From assembly GCA_964016885.1 (NCBI GenBank), contig OZ024740.1, positions 266,352,001 to 266,416,000 on the forward strand: DNA of 64,000 nucleotides, written 5' to 3'. Shown one piece after another: positions 1,337-55,760 of this stretch. The position numbers were made by a program, and so were the translations under genes. The notes under the pieces are model-generated. The model was given only the letters and a program-made list of their open reading frames with translations. It did no database searches and was not told where the DNA came from. The stretch comes from Eledone cirrhosa. Lineage: Eukaryota. Within the stretch, counting starts at the first letter, position 1; each line of letters starts with the position of its first letter.

Positions 1337-4031
1337 CTAATGGGTACAATTTGTACTACTAGAACATTTGGGTTTATAATAAAAATAAGAATTAGAAATG
1401 GCATGGGGGCAAGAAGAGAATATCTCAGACTTTCTATTCAGTAAGGGTACGCTAGAGAAAATAATAGAGTGTGTCTCAAGTATACAGAGATTACAAAACT
1501 TACTATGTGCAGAAAGGTGGTTAGATCGTGCTACTAAACTCCAGTTAAGGCTATATGGTATATAAGCTCCCTTAAGATCCCAGATATAATGCGCTAGAGA
1601 GGTAGAATTCTTAAACCTAACATGTTTGAAGTTAGAGATATGAGAGTTAAACCTAGTCTTAAAAGTGTTTGAAGTAGATCCTATATACGTTCTTTTAGAG
1701 GAATTAGTTATAACCTCGCAAGCATAGACAGTGTTCTTAGAAAGGCAGTTAACGTTTAGAGGGCAGTTAGCACTCACTCTACAATTGCACTTCCGGGTGT
1801 TATTGGTTGGCTCGAGTGGTGATGTATTGCACATAGGACCTCTATTAGATAAGGACTGTTCTGGTGGTAAAGCATTGTCCGATGCATTCAGACTAGTAGT
1901 ATGTAGAGAGGAGAATCCATCCCTAATTTTCCTATTATTAGTGCTAGCTAAATGAGAACTAATATTAGGGGTGGTAGAGAATGAGAGTTTAATAACATTT
2001 TTATTAAAAATACCATGGTATTTGTGAGAAGGGGGGAAATTTTTCTCCAAGATAGTGAAGAAAGACCTAGGGATATTAGTTGATACATCCTGATTATATG
2101 GCGGGTTGAAATAAGTATTCAATCGCCTTCTATTTTTATTTATATTCTTATCGACCCTACCTCTATCAAATGTCCCACCGTCGAGACTAGGGTTACTATC
2201 GGGAATAGTTGAAGCCACATTCATAGAATCAGCCATAATTTCGTTATGCCTATTATAGTTTCTACCTCTGGTAGATCCGCTGTTGTCCAGAATCCCTACA
2301 AGAGGATTAAGGCCAATGATAGGATCAGTATGAGCAACATTACTAGAATAAGATCCAGCCAAACCAACACCAATGCGTGAGCGCACAGGGGGCTCGACTT
2401 GTCTCTTAGAGGTATTATATTTGTTATTACGAGTCCGGTGGGATAACTTATGGGTGGGTTCAGATACTCCTATATAAGTTCTACGGTTACTATGTTTGCT
2501 ACTCCCATTCATGGCCATGTTATGTGATATAATGTTATTATTATTAAGAGTAAGCGGAGACTTTCTAAAGTTACTATTATTATAATTTATTTTACTAGAG
2601 TGACCTGAATTTGCTAGGGCATTATTGTAGTACTCCGCATGTTCATTAAAAGTTCCTATGTCCTTAGATAGTGTGGAAATCCTATTAGAAACGCCCTTAA
2701 TTATAGAGTTTATCATAGACTTAGGGTGGTTAGAATTGGGGCTAACATAAGAAAGAATTTCATTAGGCTTATGGAAGGGTTTAAAACTATTAGTGGCCAA
2801 GTCCAAAGTCACATCTAAAAAGTTAACCGCTCTATCATTTCTATCTATCGTGATTGAAAGGTTGTAGCTTTTAAAAAACTTATAAAGCTTCTTCTTATTA
2901 CGTTCCACATTGTTGGTACTAGAGTTAATTACAAACAATGCATCATCACGATATAGTCCGCCTACAAGGTGCGGGAAGGTAGCGTATAGTTCATTAAGGA
3001 GGAACAACCCAACAAGATCAGTAACCTGGGCCGAATCACTCGAACCCATTGTAACGTCGAAATTATTGGGCGTGTTTTTACGGGTCCAAAAAGTGTCCTC
3101 AAATTTAATAATAGTTTTACGGGCTGCTAGTATAATATCTACCTGCGATCGTGTAAGGCTGGACACTCTCATGGCCAACATTAAGGCTTTATTGAGGAGG
3201 ATGGGTGAAATTGATGTGTAGTAGGCATCAATATCGAATTGGATAAACTTATTAGATTCAAGTCTATTAATCCCAGAGAACCAATCTATAACTTCCCTAG
3301 TGTTCCCCCATAAGTTAAAATTAACCTTATCCCTAACATCTGGTATAATAAGGTCAAGGATTTTTTTACTGATAATGGCTATATCCGACTTAGAAGGACA
3401 GATAAGTCTAACTGAGGGGTTACTAATAAAATCAACCTTATGGTCCTTAAGTGTGAATCTCGGTTCTCGAGGGTAATATGGCTGGGTATACTTATCGAGT
3501 CCGAGGTCAGAGACTATTCTAAGGCCCTCACTATTGATGTGGTTCAAATTTTCAAGCGTAGTTTTTTTTATAGTTTCTATATAACTCTTTATAAATAAAA
3601 TCGCGGTATGTACTATAGTCCATGGAGTATAGATTCTTAGTCTTATCTGCCGGGACCAGAATGGACTTATTCTCACCGAAACCCTTAACAGTATTTTTAA
3701 GTCTGGACTGGAATTTATCAAAATTACTATTGTTTCTATGTCTATTATTTGGCCTAAACCTAACATTTTTGACCAGAGAGAGTAAGTCACCTTCGAAACT
3801 ATCTAATAGTATGTTGTGTGGTGGGCTCTTATAAGTTTTGAAGCCGTAATTATTAAAATTTGTTCTATTCCTGGGGTCCTTCTTATTCTTATTACTATCG
3901 TAGTGAAACGCACGCCATCTAATCCTTTTTACAAAGGAGTTAACACTAGCTATCAGTAGTTTTTGGTAAGTATTCTTAGAGGGGGTGGGAATATTTTTCA
4001 GAGATAAAGGCAAGTAACTCTTTGTCAGCAT
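1337..4031 (-). pseudogene. PLE reverse transcriptase + GIY-YIG endonuclease (Naiad-like), one frameshift at the A8 run 3562-3569
   Basis: N-terminal SLKNIPTPS..FVKRIRWRA..ADKTKNLY. RT motifs FIQFDIDAYYTSI, FDVTMGSSDSAQV, GLYRDD, VNFLDV. YFNPPY. CNCRVSANCPLNVNCL..VY..YIGST..FKTR. ORFs 3552-4031 and 1337-3790 join as RNYKK-TTLENLN. Confidence 0.9.
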
Positions 4032-4254
4032 ACTGTCAAATAAAAATATATAGAGGCCAAAATACCAGTATATATGTGAGTAAGCTCAACCTATCGGGAG
4101 CAGTTACAAGGATTAGAATACTGGAGCGTGTTTGAGTCAAACACCCTCTTCGTATTATAGAAATGACAGTAAAAGGTATAGCTCAATGCAGTTAAACAGA
4201 GCCAAAAAATTAAGAGAGTAAAACAAAGAATCCTTTAATACATCAAAAGTTTTT

Positions 4255-4299
4255 ATTAGCCGACAATGTTTCGTCCTATTAAGGACTCATCAGGGCAAT
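4255..4299 (-). ncRNA. Minimal type I hammerhead ribozyme
   Basis: Minus strand reads attgcc CTGATGA gtcc-ttaata-ggac GAAA c-att-GTC ggctaat. Predicted cleavage between 4262 and 4261. Confidence 0.88.
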
Positions 4300-4634
4300 C
4301 AAAACAACAAGAGGTAATATCGGCAGATACAAGCCAGAAACTCTGAAGAATATGGAGTGTACATACACTAATGTCTTACAAAGTTATACGATAATAAAAA
4401 TGAAAATAAAGATAAAAATAATAAAAATATATAATAACTAAGGATGTAGATAACATTAAGAACCATATTACAAATATAGTCCAAAGCCACCAACCTAAAT
4501 CTAAACAAATTTGGTTATATAGAGCAGGAATTATATATAACACAATATAATACATTATTATAATAATATATTTATACCAACATTAAAATTCCAAATTAAA
4601 AATCAAAAGGTACAATATATACATGTATATATGT

Positions 4635-5219: not shown

Positions 5220-6181
5220 TATTTAGGGCCCTTCTAAATAGCCTACAAATTTAGAAGGGCCCTAAATAAACATAATCTCAATATTAAGATAGTAGAAAGA
5301 CCAGGTACCTCCGTAAAAGCACTTATTAGCAAGACATACCCGTTCCAAAGACCCTCATGTATAGATAAGAAATGTATAACCTGTAAAATAAGCCCCCATA
5401 TTAACTGTAAAACTAGAAATGTAGTGTATAGCATAAGATGTACTGAAGGACAATGTAGAAACAAAAATATAGTGTACATAGGTGAGACAGCTCGTAGTAT
5501 AGGGGAACGAATAAATGAACACTGGCGAGACCTCCAAGATAATAAAGAATCATCTGTGCTCTACCAACATGCTAAGATAGAACACAGGGGTAGATTAGAG
5601 AACATAGAAATAAAAATAGAATCCACACACAGAAAAGACGCAATGTTTAGGCAAATTACAGAGGCAGTAAGCATAAAAGAATTAAAACCAAAATTAAATA
5701 GAAAATATGAGTGGAACAGCAACATCACAACTTACAATTAAGGACAAATGAAAACACACACAGGACAAAATGAAAACACACACACACATAGAACAAACAA
5801 CCAACCAACAATAAATAAATAAATAAATAAATAAATAAACAAATAGATAAATGAACACAAACACACACAGACACCCGGATGTGGCGCATGCGCAAACTGA
5901 GCACACAACACACACACAGAAACAAAATGGCGTAGGATAGAAGAAAGGAAAGGCACAGAAACAAAGAAAGGAATCCCCAGTCACTGAAGAGGTCACAGAA
6001 TGTGTGACGAAAGGACTATGACTATATATAAACAACTATCTGGTTGTGGAACCAACCAACCAACCAGAAATTTATAAGTTTGTAAATTTGTAAATTTATA
6101 AATTTATAAATATATAATAAATTGAAGTGAAAGCAACTGGTGCGTGTGTTTCTTATTGGCAACATGACCCTCCCAAAGTAT

Positions 6182-6188
<7 letters not shown>
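5212..6188 (+). mobile_element. 5'-truncated PLE (Neptune-like Cys linker + GIY-YIG at about 5248-5741, then 3' UTR) ending in (TA)n
   Basis: Reads KIVERPGTSVK..CIDKKCITC..NCKTRNVVYSIRC..YIGETARSIGERINEH..EAVSIKELKPKLNRK. A 28-bp inverted repeat marks the 5' junction. Confidence 0.85.
5979..6023 (+). ncRNA. Minimal type I hammerhead ribozyme
   Basis: agtca CTGAAGA g gtcaca-gaatg-tgtgac GAAA g-ga-CTA tgact. Confidence 0.8.
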
Positions 6189-6270
<82 letters not shown>

Positions 6271-10537: not shown

Positions 10538-10573
<36 letters not shown>

Positions 10574-10658
10574 AAAGTTATATTTAAAATTGTTGGGTTA
10601 CAACTAGTAAATATTTATAACTGGTATAAAAGCACTCGACAAATATTTGGAGTATATT

Positions 10659-11056
10659 TACAATATTAAATAAATGGAAAACTATATTTATAAAACCATA
10701 TTTATTTCATTATATATATTTCGGGGATATCATATTAACAATATGCTATGCCTTCATCAAACAAAATACAATATAAACAGTTTTATAGACAAATAGGTTC
10801 GACATACCGTTATAACACCGACTTCATTTGAAGAGGTTTACTCTGGCTGTGTAAACCTGTGTAAACAGCCAGAGTAAACCTCTTCAAATGAAGTCGGTGT
10901 TATAACAGTATGTCGAACCTATTTGTCTATAAAACTGTTTATATTGTATTTTGTTTGATGAAGGCATAGCATATTGTTAATATGATATCCCCGAAATATA
11001 TATAATGAAATAAATATGGTTTTATAAATATAGTTTTCCATTTATTTAATATTGTA
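10659..11056. repeat. Fold-back palindrome, 192-bp arms, 14-nt spacer
   Basis: 10659-10850 is the reverse complement of 10865-11056; I saw one mismatch. Confidence 0.93.
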
Positions 11057-11109
11057 TATATATATATATAATTCCTAACAGAGTTACATATATATAATTA
11101 TATATATAT

Positions 11110-11271
11110 AACAAAGGAATTGTGGTAAGGAACCAGATGGACCATAACGCACCAGAGTACTCAATACTTAGGGTAGTAGAGTGGGAAATAGGAAAAAGTA
11201 TGACCCCGACGGCAGAGCTCAAGCCGTTTCGACGGCTTGAGCTCTGCCGTCGGGGTCATACTTTTTCCTAT
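11110..11271 (-). mobile_element. Short tail element with a half hammerhead and a 40-bp-arm palindrome (11188-11271)
   Basis: Minus strand reads gtc GAAA cggc-ttgagctct-gccGTC gggg. A homologue lies at 25298-25475. Confidence 0.75.
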
Positions 11272-11293
11272 ATATATATATATATATATATAT

Positions 11294-11706
11294 ATAAGTA
11301 TGTACACGTACATACATATATGTATACAGACGTACAGTAGTATGTATATATATATACATACATGCACACATATATATATGTACGTATGGATTCACCGAAC
11401 ATTTATTATAATGCTCGGTGTGTTTGTAAACAAACATCCCGTATTTGTCAGTGTTGAACAAACGAGCAACGATGGTTGCTAGACACTACGGCTTAATACG
11501 GGATATTTGTTTACAAACACACCGAGCATTATAATAAATGTTCGGTGAATCCATACGTACATATATATATGTGTGTGCATGTATGTATATATATATACAT
11601 GCTACTGTACGTCTGTATACATATATGTATGTACGTGTACATACTTATATTTAAGTAACAGCCGTACTAAGAGTGGGAAATGAAATTTCGTTTCATTTTT
11701 TCCGTT

Positions 11707-11707
<1 letters not shown>
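11294..11707 (+). mobile_element. Diverged relative of the 46340-47475 retrozyme-like unit, 5'-truncated, with an inverted duplication (11294-11445 vs 11495-11650)
   Basis: Shares tgtcagtgttgaacaaa, tttgtttacaaac, catgctactgtacgtctgtatacat and ctaagagtg-gaaatgaaatttcgttt with 47175-47466. Confidence 0.85.
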
Positions 11708-15830: not shown

Positions 15831-16386
15831 ACAATAGAAATTCAATAAATATCCAGTATTATTGAGGAGCTGGCGAAGAAAAGCATGAATATTGTCCGAG
15901 CAAAGAAAATACGATAAAAACAAGTTGCATGTATATGTGTGTGTGTGTGTGCGCGCGCAACTGTGTGAGTGCGCGTGCGTGTGTATGTTATGTGGGTGTA
16001 TGTGAGTGTGTGTGCGTATGTGTGTGTGTGTATGTGTGTTTGTGTGTGTAAGTGTATCTATACGCGTATTTATGTAGATGTGTATTGTGTGTTTATAAGC
16101 ATGTGTATATATATATATATGTGTGTGTCTACAAGCTTGTGTATTTGTGAATGTGTAAGAGCGACAGGAAGGGTGGTAAAGAGTGTATGTGAGTACAGCC
16201 GCCTATGTGTATGTACATATATTACTTTAATGGCGCCTACCACAGAGCGGGAGGTTAAATCCCGTTGATCTGAATCATAGATGTGGTTATGATTTCCAAC
16301 TAGAGTTAATTCATTTTACTTTAAATGAAGAAACATCTCCGTGTAAAAATTCCAAGCATCAATAATATTGAAATTTATATTATCAT

Positions 16387-17391
16387 AGTAACCGCGGTGA
16401 GTTGTCAGGGTCGTTAGAATGTCGAACTCTCCAGAGTAACCGCGGTGAATTGTCAGGGTCGTTAGAATGTCGAACTCTCCAGAGTAACCGCGGTGAATTG
16501 TCAGGGTCGTTAGAACGTCGAACTCTCCAGAGTAACCGCGGTGAGTTGTCAGGGTCGTTAGGACGTCGAACTCTCCAGAGTAACCGCGGTGAGTTGTCAG
16601 GGTCGTTAGAATGTCGAACTCTCCAGAGTAACCGCGGTGAATTGTCAGGGTCGTTAGAATGTCGAACTCTCCAGAGTAACCGCGGTGAGTTGTCAGGGTC
16701 GTTAGAATGTCGAACTCTCCAGAGTAACCGCGGTGAATTGTCAGGGTCGTTAGAACGTCGAACTCTCCAGAGTAACCGCGGTGAATTGTCAGGGTCGTTA
16801 GAACGTCGAACTCTCCAGAGTAACCGCGGTGAATTGTCAGGGTCGTTAGAATGTCGAACTCTCCAGAGTAACCGCGGTGAATTGTCAGGGTCGTTAGAAT
16901 GTCGAACTCTCCAGAGTAACCGCGGTGAATTGTCAGGGTCGTTAGAATGTCGAACTCTCCAGAGTAACCACGGTGAGTTGTCAGGGTCGTTAGGACGTCG
17001 AACTCTCCAGAGTAACCGCGGTGAGTTGTCAGGGTCGTTAGAATGTCGAACTCTCCAGAGTAACCGCGGTGAATTGTCAGGGTCGTTAGAATGTCGAACT
17101 CTCCAGAGTAACCGCGGTGAGTTGTCAGGGTCGTTAGAATGTCGAACTCTCCAGAGTAACCGCGGTGAATTGTCAGGGTCGTTAGAACGTCGAACTCTCC
17201 AGAGTAACCGCGGTGAATTGTCAGGGTCGTTAGAACGTCGAACTCTCCAGAGTAACCGCGGTGAATTGTCAGGGTCGTTAGAACGTCGAACTCTCCAGAG
17301 TAACCGCGGTGAATTGTCAGGGTCGTTAGAACGTCGAACTCTCCAGAGTAACCGCGGTGAATTGTCAGGGTCGTTAGAACGTCGAACTCTC
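16387..17391 (+). repeat. 48-bp minisatellite, 21 units, derived from a SINE 5' head
   Basis: Unit agagtaaccgcggtgaRttgtcagggtcgttagRaYgtcgaactctcc. It runs directly into a SINE B box and core. Confidence 0.97.
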
Positions 17392-17480
17392 TGCTCTCTG
17401 AGTCCAAATCCAGCCGAGGTCAACTTTGCCTTTCATCTATTCGAGGTCGATAAAAAACGTAACAGTCTGGTACTGGGGCC
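17392..17480 (+). mobile_element. B box and central core of a family 2 SINE
   Basis: ctgagtccaaatccagccgaggtcaactttgcctttcatctattcgaggtcgataaaa. Confidence 0.8.
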
Positions 17481-19545: not shown

Positions 19546-19551
<6 letters not shown>

Positions 19552-20283
19552 ATACTTTGGGAGGGTCATGTTGCCAATAAGAAACACACGCACCAGTTGC
19601 TTTTACTTCAATTTAATTTATTATATATTTATAAATTTACAAATTTATAAATTTCTGGTTGGTTGGTTGGTTCCACAACCAGATAGTTGTTTATATATAT
19701 ATAGTCATAGTTCTTTCGTCACACACTCTGTGACCTCTTTAGTGACTGGGGATTTCTTTGTTCGTTTCTGTGCCTTTCCTTTCTTCTATCCTACGCCATT
19801 TTGTTTGTGTGTGGGTTGCGTGCTCAGTTTGCGCATGCGCCACATCCGGGTGTCTGTGTGTGTTTGTGTTCATTTTTCTATTTTTCTATTTATATTTTTT
19901 TGTTTGTTTGTTTGTATAAATAAACAAACAAATATAAATAGAAAAATAGAAAAATGAACACAAACACACACAGACACCCGGATGTGGCGCATGCGCAAAC
20001 TGAGCACGCAACCCACACACAAACAAAATGGCGTAGGATAGAAGAAAGGAAAGGCACAGAAACGAAGAAAGAAATCCCCAGTCACTGAAGAGGTCACAGA
20101 GTGTGTGACGAAAGAACTATGACTATATATATATAAACAACTATCTGGTTGTGGAACCAACCAACCAACCAGAAATTTATAAATTTGTAAATTTATAAAT
20201 ATATAATAAATTAAATTGAAGTGAAAGCAACTGGTGCGTGTGTTTCTTATTGGCAACATGACCCTCCCAAAGTATAACAATAT
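19546..20283. mobile_element. Fold-back palindrome of the 3' UTR of the 5212-6188 PLE family; intact hammerhead at 20080-20124 (+), mutated copy at 19703-19747 (-)
   Basis: Arms of ~355 bp are reverse complements and match ~5850-6188. Confidence 0.92.
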
Positions 20284-20335
20284 CGGTTTCAACACACGAT
20301 TTCAGATAAAGAATCTTGCTAAACAAATTCAGAAA

Positions 20336-20382
<47 letters not shown>

Positions 20383-52475: not shown

Positions 52476-52527
52476 ATATATGTATATATATATATATGTA
52501 TATATATATATAAAAATACGTATTTAC

Positions 52528-55500
52528 GTTAAGTCGGTAACGAGGTGTGAAGCATCGTTGGTAGGTAGATCGATGTTGGGGGGTGTAGCGGTGGGTGTTG
52601 TACAGCTGTTGCCCCTGGTGTGGTTGTAGTCGGTCCGTCTGTGGGAGCGGATGTTGTCAATGTAGTATTTGTTTACAGTCCATTCGTATTTCCGTACAAG
52701 GCGCTGTTTATCAAATCTGACTCTGGTGTGGTAACACTGATCTATACACCAGGGGCAACAGCTGTACAACACCCACCGCTACACCCCCCAACATCGATCT
52801 ACCTACCAACGATGCTTCACACCTCGTTACCGACTTAACCGGTACCCTCACCAACGACGAACTCGAACTTCTGCGCCTCGGACCCAAGTTCATCATTACA
52901 CAGCGTCTCGATGATAGACTGAAACTCGACATCGAAACCAACTTCTGTCGGACAGCTTATCAACTGAAATGGCTAACCGCCATCCAAAACAACACCGAGA
53001 TCGATTACAACCCCACAACCCACCCCACACTCCCCACGTATCACCTCGACAACCCACTCCACCCCCCACCCACCAACCACGAACTTGACACTAAACTACT
53101 CAGGTTGAAACATTCTATCTCTAACATCCTTTCCCAACACACACACACACACAATAAACGCAACCTCACCAATGCACAATTTAATACTCTCACCAACCTA
53201 AGATCCAGGAACCTTGTGTACCTTCCCTCTGACAAGGGGAAAGAATTCTGTGTCATCTCGAGAGAGACCTACAACAACTTAGCTCTCCAACATCTTAATG
53301 ACCACAGCCTCTACTCGAAAGTCACAGGGACCTCCTCGACTCTAATCGAGGAAGGCATTAACACCATATGGACTAACATCTGTGTCCAACGAAAACTGCC
53401 AAAGAAGGTAAAAAACAACATAATGACTCGAAACAGCAAATTACCCACCTTCTACCACCTGGTCAAAACACATAAACAAGGACCCGATTTGAAAATCAGG
53501 CCCATTGTCTCTAGCGTGGAGGGCCCACTCTATAAAATATCGTGGCTGCTCTCCACACTACTGAAACCTATTCCACACACACTACCAGCCCACGTCTGCA
53601 GCTCAATGGAAGTCTTGGAGCGACTACACCATCTGGCGCCCAACACCAGAAAGGACAACGGTTATGCCTTCAGTCTTGATGTGGTCTCCCTTTATACCTC
53701 CGTACCAGCATCCCCAGCTGTCGACCTGTTGACCGAACGAGTCCGAGCATCTAACCTACACTGCTTCGGACTCACACACACGGACATCCACCAACTCCTC
53801 TCCTTCGTTGTGGATAATGCACTCTTCAATTTCCTCGGCCACACGTACAAACAAATCTCTGGGCTACCTATGGGCTCTAGTCTGTCCGGCATACTTGCGA
53901 TCTCGTACATGGACCACCTGGAACGCAAGGCACTCAATACCTGCCAACCCAACGCCGTCGCCTTCTACTCCAGATACGTTGATGATATCCTGATACTTAC
54001 TTCTTCCCGGGAGATGGCGAATGAAATTCACCAAATCTTCAACGATACTGACCAACACATCGATTTCACCATCGAACACCCGGGAGAAGACGGGTCACTC
54101 GCCCTCCTCGACTTCCGTATCAACATCTCGGAACAAGGAGACATAAACACCACTTTCTACCGCAAAGCAGCGTGCAAGGACCTATTTGTGCATTATAACT
54201 CAGCCCTCCCCAACAACGCTAAGAGAGGCTATGTCCTAAATGAACTGACACGGATCACTAACAGATGCAGCGACCCGATGGGTGGTCTCACCCATACCAC
54301 GCAATTCCGTAATCTACTCAGATCTAATGGTTATCCCAAGCGACTGATTAACGGAATTAGAGACCCCAGACCCAGTAGACCTACACCCACTAGAAAACTT
54401 AATATTAGCAGGTGCTTCTTTAAAATCCCCCACCTGAGTGAATATACCACGAACGCCATCCGCAGGGCCATACGTACGGAGGGACTTGACATACATTTGG
54501 CCCACACAGGACCTTCGCTGCGAAGATGCCTCTCCAACAAACCCTACGAGGCAGATAGGACTTGTTCCCTCAGCAACTGCCCGATACGGGGGGCAGATTG
54601 CCTACGCACCTATGTCGTATATAAGATTCAATGCGATAAATGTAACAAGTTTTACATAGGTAGCACCATCCGACCCCTACATGTTCGTATCAAGGAACAT
54701 ATCAACACCAACGCATCTTCCTTCCGTAAACATATCCTCAAATGCGGAAACCCACAGGGTAGACCCTTGGTCACAGTCCTAGCGACTGAACGCAGCATCG
54801 GATCCTTAAGGATAAAGGAAGCACTTGTTATTAGGAACCTCAGACCCCCACTTAACAACCGGGCTGAGAGAAATGAGCTGACATGGCTAATTTAACCATA
54901 ATGACCATTCACAGCCTACGGCCTGCTATATTCACACACACGCACGTATATGCATACCCATACGCATGCACACACACTTCTATATTTTACACGCACACAT
55001 GTTTTTACAACCTACCACCTTTCACACCCTTTGATTTCCAGCTTCTACAGCCCACTATCTTTCACACACAAACGCACTCACACATATACATACACAGTTA
55101 CACACACACATGTATACCCATACGCTTACACACACACACTTCTATATTTATACACGCACACATATTTTACAACCTACCACCTTTCACACCCTTTGATTTC
55201 CAACTTCTACAGCCCACTATCTTTCACACACACACACACTCACACATATACACACTTACACTTATACACACACAGTCACACACACATATATATTTACATA
55301 CACATATCTTAAGGCTTTCACACGCTAACGCACCCTCTTGATTTAACCCATTTGGTCAGTAGCTTTTGCCACAGCTTATCACGCGCACGCGCATTCTCTC
55401 CCTCGTTTAAATTTTAAATATTTTTCTCCCCATAACGCATTCCTGTCTTAACGACATCACCACTTTCTCCGCTTGGCCTGTTTTCCCCCTTTTGGAACTT

Positions 55501-55727
55501 TTCCCCGTTGATGGGCGTGAGTCCGAATATTGGGATTAAATCTCTACTATGGTAACCCTTCTACCTTGTTTTGTTTTCATCTTTGTCTCTCTCAACTTTC
55601 ACTTTCACCTGTTTTTCCTATCTATATTTCACTTCCTACCTCGAGATTTCCCTTTGCATTGTTGTGGCTTTCTTAAATACGTATTTTTACACATTTCACA
55701 ATGCTTCAAGCAACTTTAACACCCTCT

Positions 55728-55728
<1 letters not shown>
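52528..55728 (+). mobile_element. Penelope-like element with a 5' inversion, inserted in (TA)n
   Basis: 52528-52622 is the reverse complement of 52746-52839. Long RT-GIY-YIG ORF. The 3' UTR has an internal ~150-bp duplication. Confidence 0.92.
52748..54895 (+). CDS. PLE RT + GIY-YIG, uninterrupted frame of ~715 codons, N-terminus displaced by the inversion
   Basis: VTDLTGTLTNDELELLRLGPKF is in frame with LPSDKG, IRPIVS, SLDVVSLYTSVP, GLPMGS, RYVDD, VVYKIQCDKCNKFYIGST..RIKEH. Confidence 0.9.
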   Translation, partial: TRGNSCTTPTATPPNIDLPTNDASHLVTDLTGTLTNDELELLRLGPKFIITQRLDDRLKLDIETNFCRTAYQLKWLTAIQNNTEIDYNPTTHPTLPTYHLDNPLHPPPTNHELDTKLLRLKHSISNILSQHTHTHNKRNLTNAQFNTLTNLRSRNLVYLPSDKGKEFCVISRETYNNLALQHLNDHSLYSKVTGTSSTLIEEGINTIWTNICVQRKLPKKVKNNIMTRNSKLPTFYHLVKTHKQGPDLKIRPIVSSVEGPLYKISWLLSTLLKPIPHTLPAHVCSSMEVLERLHHLAPNTRKDNGYAFSLDVVSLYTSVPASPAVDLLTERVRASNLHCFGLTHTDIHQLLSFVVDNALFNFLGHTYKQISGLPMGSSLSGILAISYMDHLERKALNTCQPNAVAFYSRYVDDILILTSSREMANEIHQIFNDTDQHIDFTIEHPGEDGSLALLDFRINISEQGDINTTFYRKAACKDLFVHYNSALPNNAKRGYVLNELTRITNRCSDPMGGLTHTTQFRNLLRSNGYPKRLINGIRDPRPSRPTPTRKLNISRCFFKIPHLSEYTTNAIRRAIRTEGLDIHLAHTGPSLRRCLSNKPYEADRTCSLSNCPIRGADCLRTYVVYKIQCDKCNKFYIGSTIRPLHVRIKEHINTNASSFRKHILKCGNPQGRPLVTVLATERSIGSLRIKEALVIRNLRPPLNNRAERNELTWLI

Positions 55729-55760
<32 letters not shown>

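Follow-up and report, generated by a model that had tools for sequence, protein, structure and literature searches.

A covarying RNA fold and two Penelope-type insertion ends in the hammerhead retrozymes of Eledone cirrhosa

The window analysed here comprises 64,000 nucleotides of the Eledone cirrhosa genome and contains two related stretches, at positions 11446-11707 and 47175-47466, which are copies of a tandem type I hammerhead repeat, i.e. of a non-LTR retrozyme. They have been assigned to two subfamilies, A (the 11446 copy) and B (the 47175 copy), and each represents one arm of an inverted insertion within a (TA)n run. The subfamily A insertion is composed of a plus-strand copy (11446-11707), which is 5'-truncated just past the hammerhead and reaches (TA)n at a point designated end 2, and of an inverted minus-strand arm (11293-11445), which lacks the tail and stops in (TA)n at a different point, end 1; the two arms share 2 nt of microhomology at the inversion junction, 11445/11446. 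Read on the plus strand, the A copy begins with the remnant 3' strand of an extended hammerhead stem I (11446-11459), the partner of which has been lost, and continues with a hairpin whose position is kept in B-F with a different sequence (11465-11480) and with the 5' arm of a long-range helix (11487-11493; hereafter the long helix). Within the long helix are found two internal hairpins (11506-11547), the second with compensatory changes, a long alternating AT-rich helix that is missing from family E (11554-11641), and a short hairpin with end 1, the first putative reverse transcriptase (RT) start, in its loop (11642-11657). The 3' arm of the long helix (11660-11667) lies within the tail and is followed by the 5' strand of a second covarying helix (11671-11677), which pairs with a strand beyond end 2, in the following unit, and by a terminal hairpin and U-rich run leading to end 2, the second putative RT start (11678-11707). 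The terminal hairpin itself (11678-11698) is not kept in families E and F.

The subfamily B insertion consists of a plus-strand arm (46766-47474), with a partial and then a full unit ending at end 2, as well as an inverted minus-strand arm (46340-46764) that has its own hammerhead (core at 46617) and reaches end 1. On the plus strand, this insertion includes a junction closed by the second helix (46966-46972/47035-47041), which spans end 2 of the upstream unit, an octamer-like 8-mer that is a possible promoter element (47045-47052), the type I hammerhead with its extended stem I (47102-47188; core from 47133, predicted cleavage after 47163), and the long helix (47217-47224/47423-47430) together with the domain that it closes (47217-47430).

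A first-pass annotation of this DNA had described the two stretches as a second structured RNA module beside the hammerhead. The motifs that it quoted are all present where it placed them, including the long helix (11487-11493/11660-11666 and 47218-47224/47423-47429) and the hairpins of the A copy (11465-11480, 11520-11547, 11642-11657 and 11678-11698). The module is not separate, however, as the stretch forms the body of a single retrozyme monomer and in part belongs to the hammerhead: the extended stem I has as its 3' strand the conserved 17-mer (11446/47175), which pairs with 47102-47117, and part of the supposed second module is therefore hammerhead. Nor does a hammerhead stand beside the module at 11446, where the copy is truncated at the inversion junction and has none. 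The internal hairpins, thought to be of unrelated sequence, prove to be homologous, with intermediates found among the copies, and the motifs termed invariant are changed in families C-F. The purine run at 11671-11677 pairs ~60 nt downstream, past the range that had been considered.

The hammerhead has a conserved core, an NUH site and covarying stems, with double changes in 4/6 pairs of stem I and 3/5 pairs of stem II, as in type I (types after PMC4209133), and its loop III is palindromic in families A-D. It does not reach the Rfam gathering score (HH9, 18.5 bits on the hammerhead versus a cut-off of 52), and no gathering-level matches were found in five loci. A comparison of 46930-47480 with Rfam gave 44 matches up to E 5, which include no ribozyme except a weak HH9 (hammerhead), and in a scan of the whole window the best 150 of 441 matches are miRNA-type noise only. 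Twister, pistol, hatchet and HDV, which the first-pass annotation had also found not to fit, did not match in the Rfam comparison.

Exact patterns counted over the whole 3.0-Gb assembly illustrate the abundance of these elements, with 32,427 matches to the 17-mer (reversed control, 1) and 27,502 to the hammerhead core (control, 0). Repeat units in the fetched loci are ~420-540 nt long and tandem, with a type I hammerhead in each; the core recurs in consecutive units, with a core-to-core spacing of 419-538 nt in 32 distinct stretches. Four further families, C-F, share this layout in the same genome. Families C (283 exact matches) and D (units of 466-469 nt; 11,810 matches to a pattern not specific to D, as old A copies and others match it too) were recovered by a hammerhead survey and looser patterns, and families E (2,643 matches) and F (a 310-nt unit; 3,779 matches) with an HMM built from A-D. 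Arrays of ~30 units occur in families D and F: those at G000:C1:5738326-5752444 and 36482096-36490619 contain ~31 near-identical D units (the array listed first) and ~27 near-identical F units (listed second, 36482096-36490619), each with a short inverted arm, which is the pattern expected of rolling-circle reverse transcription. Loci L171-L200 also contain remnants of several older hammerhead families that share the short stem III, and in some of them an octamer-like 8-mer lies upstream.

The units have no coding capacity beyond a low-complexity antisense frame in the window B insertion (46624-46998). Matches to Penelope-like element (PLE) proteins in tblastn all lie outside the retrozyme units, in which an ORF with RT and GIY-YIG domains is absent. 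Helentron/DINE and MITE readings were dismissed by reasoning from the hammerhead, the head-to-tail arrays and the variable inversion points, and a SECIS reading by inspection.

Covariation was assessed in a sequence-only alignment of 24 hand-picked copies from families A-D, one per locus. In agreement with the earlier claim of covariation in the long helix, this helix was recovered unprompted by RNAalifold from the structure-blind alignment, as part of a consensus of 37 pairs, 21 of which have a double change. Five of its eight pairs are changed on both sides and 96.8% of cells are paired (A-D). For the long and second helices together, 94.5% of cells are paired and the covariation score is 0.368, a value attained in 0/500 shuffles (mean 0.178), although the shuffle control ignores relatedness and the tool warns that kindred sequences can exceed shuffles. 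Slid controls gave a maximum of 0.121, and the hammerhead stems, as a positive control, 0.429. More conservative measures are weaker (14/500 shuffles for double-change pairs, 484/500 shuffles for further pair types). In the second helix alone, 3/6 pairs have a double change. When subfamily majorities were scanned exhaustively for helices of 6 bp, four were retained: two windows of the long helix with four covarying pairs each, hammerhead stem I, which the long helix outscores, with three, and one helix with none; the parallel-strand control gave at most one covarying pair.

Copies of A/B in which both arms could be read include one-sided intermediates, G-U among them. Furthermore, families E and F, both found later and outside the alignment, have a perfect 8-bp helix at the corresponding place (L298:1093-1100 with 1188-1195; L240:1582-1589 with 1661-1668), the register in family F being taken from position and fold rather than from alignment. 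Over the six families, 7/8 pairs of the long helix are represented by at least two Watson-Crick types. The second helix is present in E and F as well, and in an old family E copy it is found in the minimum free energy (MFE) structure and is absent from the centroid. The blind alignment places several of the hairpins out of register, and these were assessed only by eye.

When folded separately, monomers of families A, B, D, E and F are predicted to adopt one common topology, in which the extended stem I closes the molecule and encloses a hairpin, the long helix, the second-helix junction and one or two more hairpins, and the long helix in turn encloses the internal hairpins, the optional AT-rich helix and the end-1 region. 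The z-scores (A circular, -10.4; B, -10.1; D, -11.3; E, -6.0; F, -4.6) are high in part because of AT-rich palindromic tracts. The antisense strand of family A is ~24 kcal/mol weaker than the sense strand, and the G-U pairs that have become fixed in subfamilies are on the sense strand. The independent folds of five families and the covariation support the proposal, made in the first-pass annotation, of selection on RNA structure. Counting against the start-site model developed below is the observation that the single A copy of the window shows the long helix only partly, and in the centroid only, the MFE structure containing a pairing that competes with it.

The octamer-like 8-mer is located 80-100 nt upstream of the core in 149/217 A-D hammerheads (many of those without it are truncations), compared with 0.6% of random windows and 2/53 other hammerheads. 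It is found in families A-E, with several copies in E, and is absent from F. It is fixed while its pairing partner varies, which suggests a role as a DNA-level promoter, as in newt satellite 2, whose promoter reportedly uses the octamer. Part of the conservation could simply reflect common descent.

Inserted copies pass into simple repeats, for the most part (TA)n, at either of two fixed points, which flank the 3' arm of the long helix. End 1 lies ~6-14 nt before this arm, within the loop of the short hairpin in A, B and D, and end 2 lies in a U-rich run ~15-25 nt after it when the inserted hairpin is discounted, these distances having been judged by eye. Among 80 A/B ends, 38 are at end 1, 36 at end 2 and 6 elsewhere, with end 2 of subfamilies B1/B2 undercounted as a result of their end-2 copies being sorted by script as read-through. 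The corresponding numbers are 15, 18 and 2 for family D (n=35), and 15 end 1 and 13 end 2 for family F (n=28, by eye, with one read-through row and one row with N omitted). The junctions are with simple repeats, mostly (TA)n, at 74/80 A/B ends and 33/35 D ends. As end 1 of A/B adjoins TA-like bases, microhomology of 1-3 nt may help to set it, a point that counts against the start-site model.

The two ends are also distributed by a simple rule, with one end of each type in 12/13 A/B and 10/10 D inverted insertions, as well as in 10/10 F and 18/19 E insertions scored by eye. The total of 50/52 corresponds to p ~3e-13 under an independent 50:50 choice, a value possibly inflated slightly by duplicated loci. 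Two A/B pairs (one 16 kb apart, one with an unclassified end), one D pair, one F pair with N and two E loci (unpaired or duplicate) were dropped, and five further B1/B2 pairs, including the window B insertion, were judged by eye outside this total and are all mixed. Two ends with one of each in the inverted arms constitute the 'tail' signature of PLEs, and the tandem or inverted 5'-truncated structure, the tail at one end only and the microsatellite target are likewise those of PLE-type insertions. The earlier suggestion of an RT-recognition scaffold gains from this result, in that both 3' ends of inserted copies fall inside the domain, at matching places in the five families counted, but the evidence for recognition is indirect. 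Of 274 HMM matches that reach the 3' end of the model, only two begin no more than 3 positions away from the cleavage site (24 begin downstream and 248 upstream of it), which argues against a cut linear monomer as the template, although this sample is biased by the many loci picked for an intact hammerhead core.

Two ends with a tail are likewise seen in the autonomous PLE families of the same loci. These families are presumably Nematis-, Neptune- and Poseidon-like, clade labels that we assigned from motifs, and a Pfam comparison of five PLE proteins confirmed GIY-YIG in three and RT in one. The Neptune-like elements form a young, abundant family (38,765 first-look candidates; 97-100% identity among the 150 scored), which, like the Nematis-like families, targets (TA)n. 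Neither shares sequence with families A-D. No homology to the retrozymes was found in the 3' flanks of Nematis-, Neptune- and Poseidon-like ORFs or in six long Neptune-like copies, and no homologous repeat in the PLE 3' flanks of ~220 fetched loci. The Neptune-like repeat folds no better than shuffles (z -0.7). Both this result and the lack of a homologous repeat in the fetched flanks count against the start-site model. Neptune- and Poseidon-like elements of the window have, by eye, a helix of 7-8 bp with the 3' arm starting 8-10 nt after end 1.

The window itself is rich in such elements. Neptune-like PLEs at 5238-6190 and 19550-20340 have a hammerhead, and the beginning of their ORF is encoded by the 57-nt tail. 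A Poseidon-like PLE at 52510-55729 encodes RT and GIY-YIG in an intact 724-aa frame (52721-54895); its inverted arm is short, only one end bears the 40-nt tail, and the 3' arm of a 7-bp helix lies 8 nt past end 1. A Nematis-like PLE on the minus strand (1337-4300) has its ORF preceded by a canonical hammerhead (4293), and a young Nematis-like copy with a long 3' region (42649-45540; also in L017) has a one-base difference, near 45378, in a hammerhead-like core that is canonical in other copies. Another PLE repeat forms an inverted insertion at 10550-11060, where it shows two ends and a variant hammerhead-like core. An abundant (TA)n-targeting element with a single end type and no tail (32 matches in the loci) is found at 11110-11270, and a 33-nt tandem repeat with long open frames on both strands at 16316-17430.

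Taken together, these observations make it likely that the conserved fold positions two start sites for a Penelope-type RT supplied in trans. Tandem transcripts would self-cleave at the hammerhead, and the extended stem I would hold the two ends of the monomer close to each other, so that they can be ligated into a circle. A protein from a PLE, with RT and GIY-YIG domains, may then bind the long helix and nick both strands of the (TA)n target. The first cDNA would start ~6-14 nt before the 3' arm of this helix and the second ~15-25 unpaired nt beyond it. Arrays would arise as the cDNAs continue around the circle or along a multimer that has not been cut, and the inverted arrangement as they meet by microhomology.

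The fold could instead have been selected for the life of the RNA, i.e. for hammerhead folding, ligation, circle stability or nuclear export, in which case the PLE protein or endonuclease processing would set both ends independently of the helices. A high degree of self-pairing is predicted for all retrozyme circles (Cervera & de la Pena 2020, PMC7229834), structure is found across the whole monomer rather than in the tail alone, and two-ended tails also occur in PLEs whose repeats lack a strong fold. Despite these points we consider this explanation rather unlikely, as the positions of the ends relative to the long helix are kept where the families scarcely align, and the strongest covarying helix is the one between the two ends. 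A role of the structure in single-stranded cDNA, as a hairpin for the GIY-YIG nuclease during resolution, would accord with the nuclease resolution of the tail proposed by Craig et al. (2021, PMC8557442) and with the tail requirement for Penelope endonuclease recognition cited by Frangieh et al. (2024, PMC11167929). It is improbable, however, in view of the fixed wobbles, which are mostly sense-strand G-U and would be A-C mismatches in cDNA, and of the poorer folding of the antisense strand (calculated with RNA parameters only).

Template switching between inverted repeats could also homogenise the arms of a helix, so that covariation would arise as a neutral by-product; such switching is frequent in these elements, as seen in their inverted arms, and the disregard of relatedness by the shuffle control leaves some room for this explanation. 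With arms of only 8 bp that are 70-200 nt apart, G-U intermediates fixed in subfamilies, a topology that persists in six families and a parallel-strand control devoid of any helix with more than one covarying pair, it is very improbable. Hardly credible is the suggestion, raised in the first-pass annotation, that this domain represents a new ribozyme, self-cleaving in addition to the hammerhead. Its strongly covarying fold of several helices, for which Rfam has no name, might invite such a reading, but few unpaired bases outside the hammerhead are fixed across A-F, parts of the domain are dispensable (the AT helix is gone in E, the terminal hairpin in E and F), no Rfam ribozyme matches, and there is no sharp 5'-end peak within the part of the unit covered by HMM-match starts.

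An extension of the start-site model, which we regard as possible rather than probable, is that the long helix and its flanking starts represent a general 'dual-priming' element of PLEs, of which six retrozyme families have kept a protein-free copy. A dimeric, telomerase-related RT would dock on the 7-8 bp helix and make one cDNA per nicked target strand, at fixed distances on either side of the 3' arm. The template of telomerase is delimited by a boundary helix, which is offered as an analogy.

The class of element is already known; its architecture and end rule we did not find in print, and a search of the openly accessible literature returned nothing on these families or on covariation in the retrozyme body. 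The choice of template and start by PLE RTs and the origin of inverted one-tail insertions are described as open questions in PMC8557442 and PMC11167929, and the mobilisation of animal retrozymes by PLEs is still a proposal. The retrozymes described here number tens of thousands of copies, bear the end signature of PLEs and are free of coding constraint, so that the start domain becomes visible by covariation, and family F offers a natural template of 310 nt.

As in the metazoan non-LTR retrozymes (Cervera & de la Pena 2020, PMC7229834; Li et al. 2026, 10.64898/2026.07.22.740005), the units are non-coding, tandem and low in GC, have a type I hammerhead, range from dispersed monomers to long arrays and co-occur with PLEs. 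Predicted folds are given and PLE mobilisation is proposed in those studies, whereas a covarying domain outside the hammerhead and mapped insertion ends do not feature in the sections of them that were accessible. At 310-540 nt, the units are at or above the 170-400 nt stated there for invertebrate circles. Newt satellite 2 is likewise a hammerhead tandem repeat and has an internal snRNA-type promoter (PMC2220036), comparable with the upstream 8-mer of families A-E; family F, which is without the 8-mer, differs in this respect.

Among PLEs, pLTR insertions in general and non-autonomous Chlamys elements such as MRC1 (Craig et al. 2021, PMC8557442) are similar in their tandem or inverted 5'-truncated structure, microsatellite targets, one-end tail and multicopy head-to-tail non-autonomous forms. 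MRC1-type elements resemble their partners at the 3' end, whereas no such partner was found here in the fetched loci. The tail is described in that paper as 'often' at one end only, compared with the 50/52 counted here, and is attributed to endonuclease resolution and not to RT starts, which counts against the start-site model. A close parallel to that model is the Poseidon element PAc of Anolis, whose RT initiates in vitro at two internal sites within a stem-loop, one on either side of the tail; both strands are extended, and a dimer is predicted (Frangieh et al. 2024, PMC11167929). Both systems have an AT-rich target, and under the model both would also have two internal RT starts flanking the tail, with both strands cleaved and extended and hammerhead cleavage not needed; the tail of the Neptune-like family described above is at the ORF start, as in PAc. 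PAc differs in being autonomous, with its sites within the ORF and, in the available text, no covariation model of the start domain, and its tail measures 30-40 nt, compared with ~35-75 nt in the retrozymes of Eledone cirrhosa.
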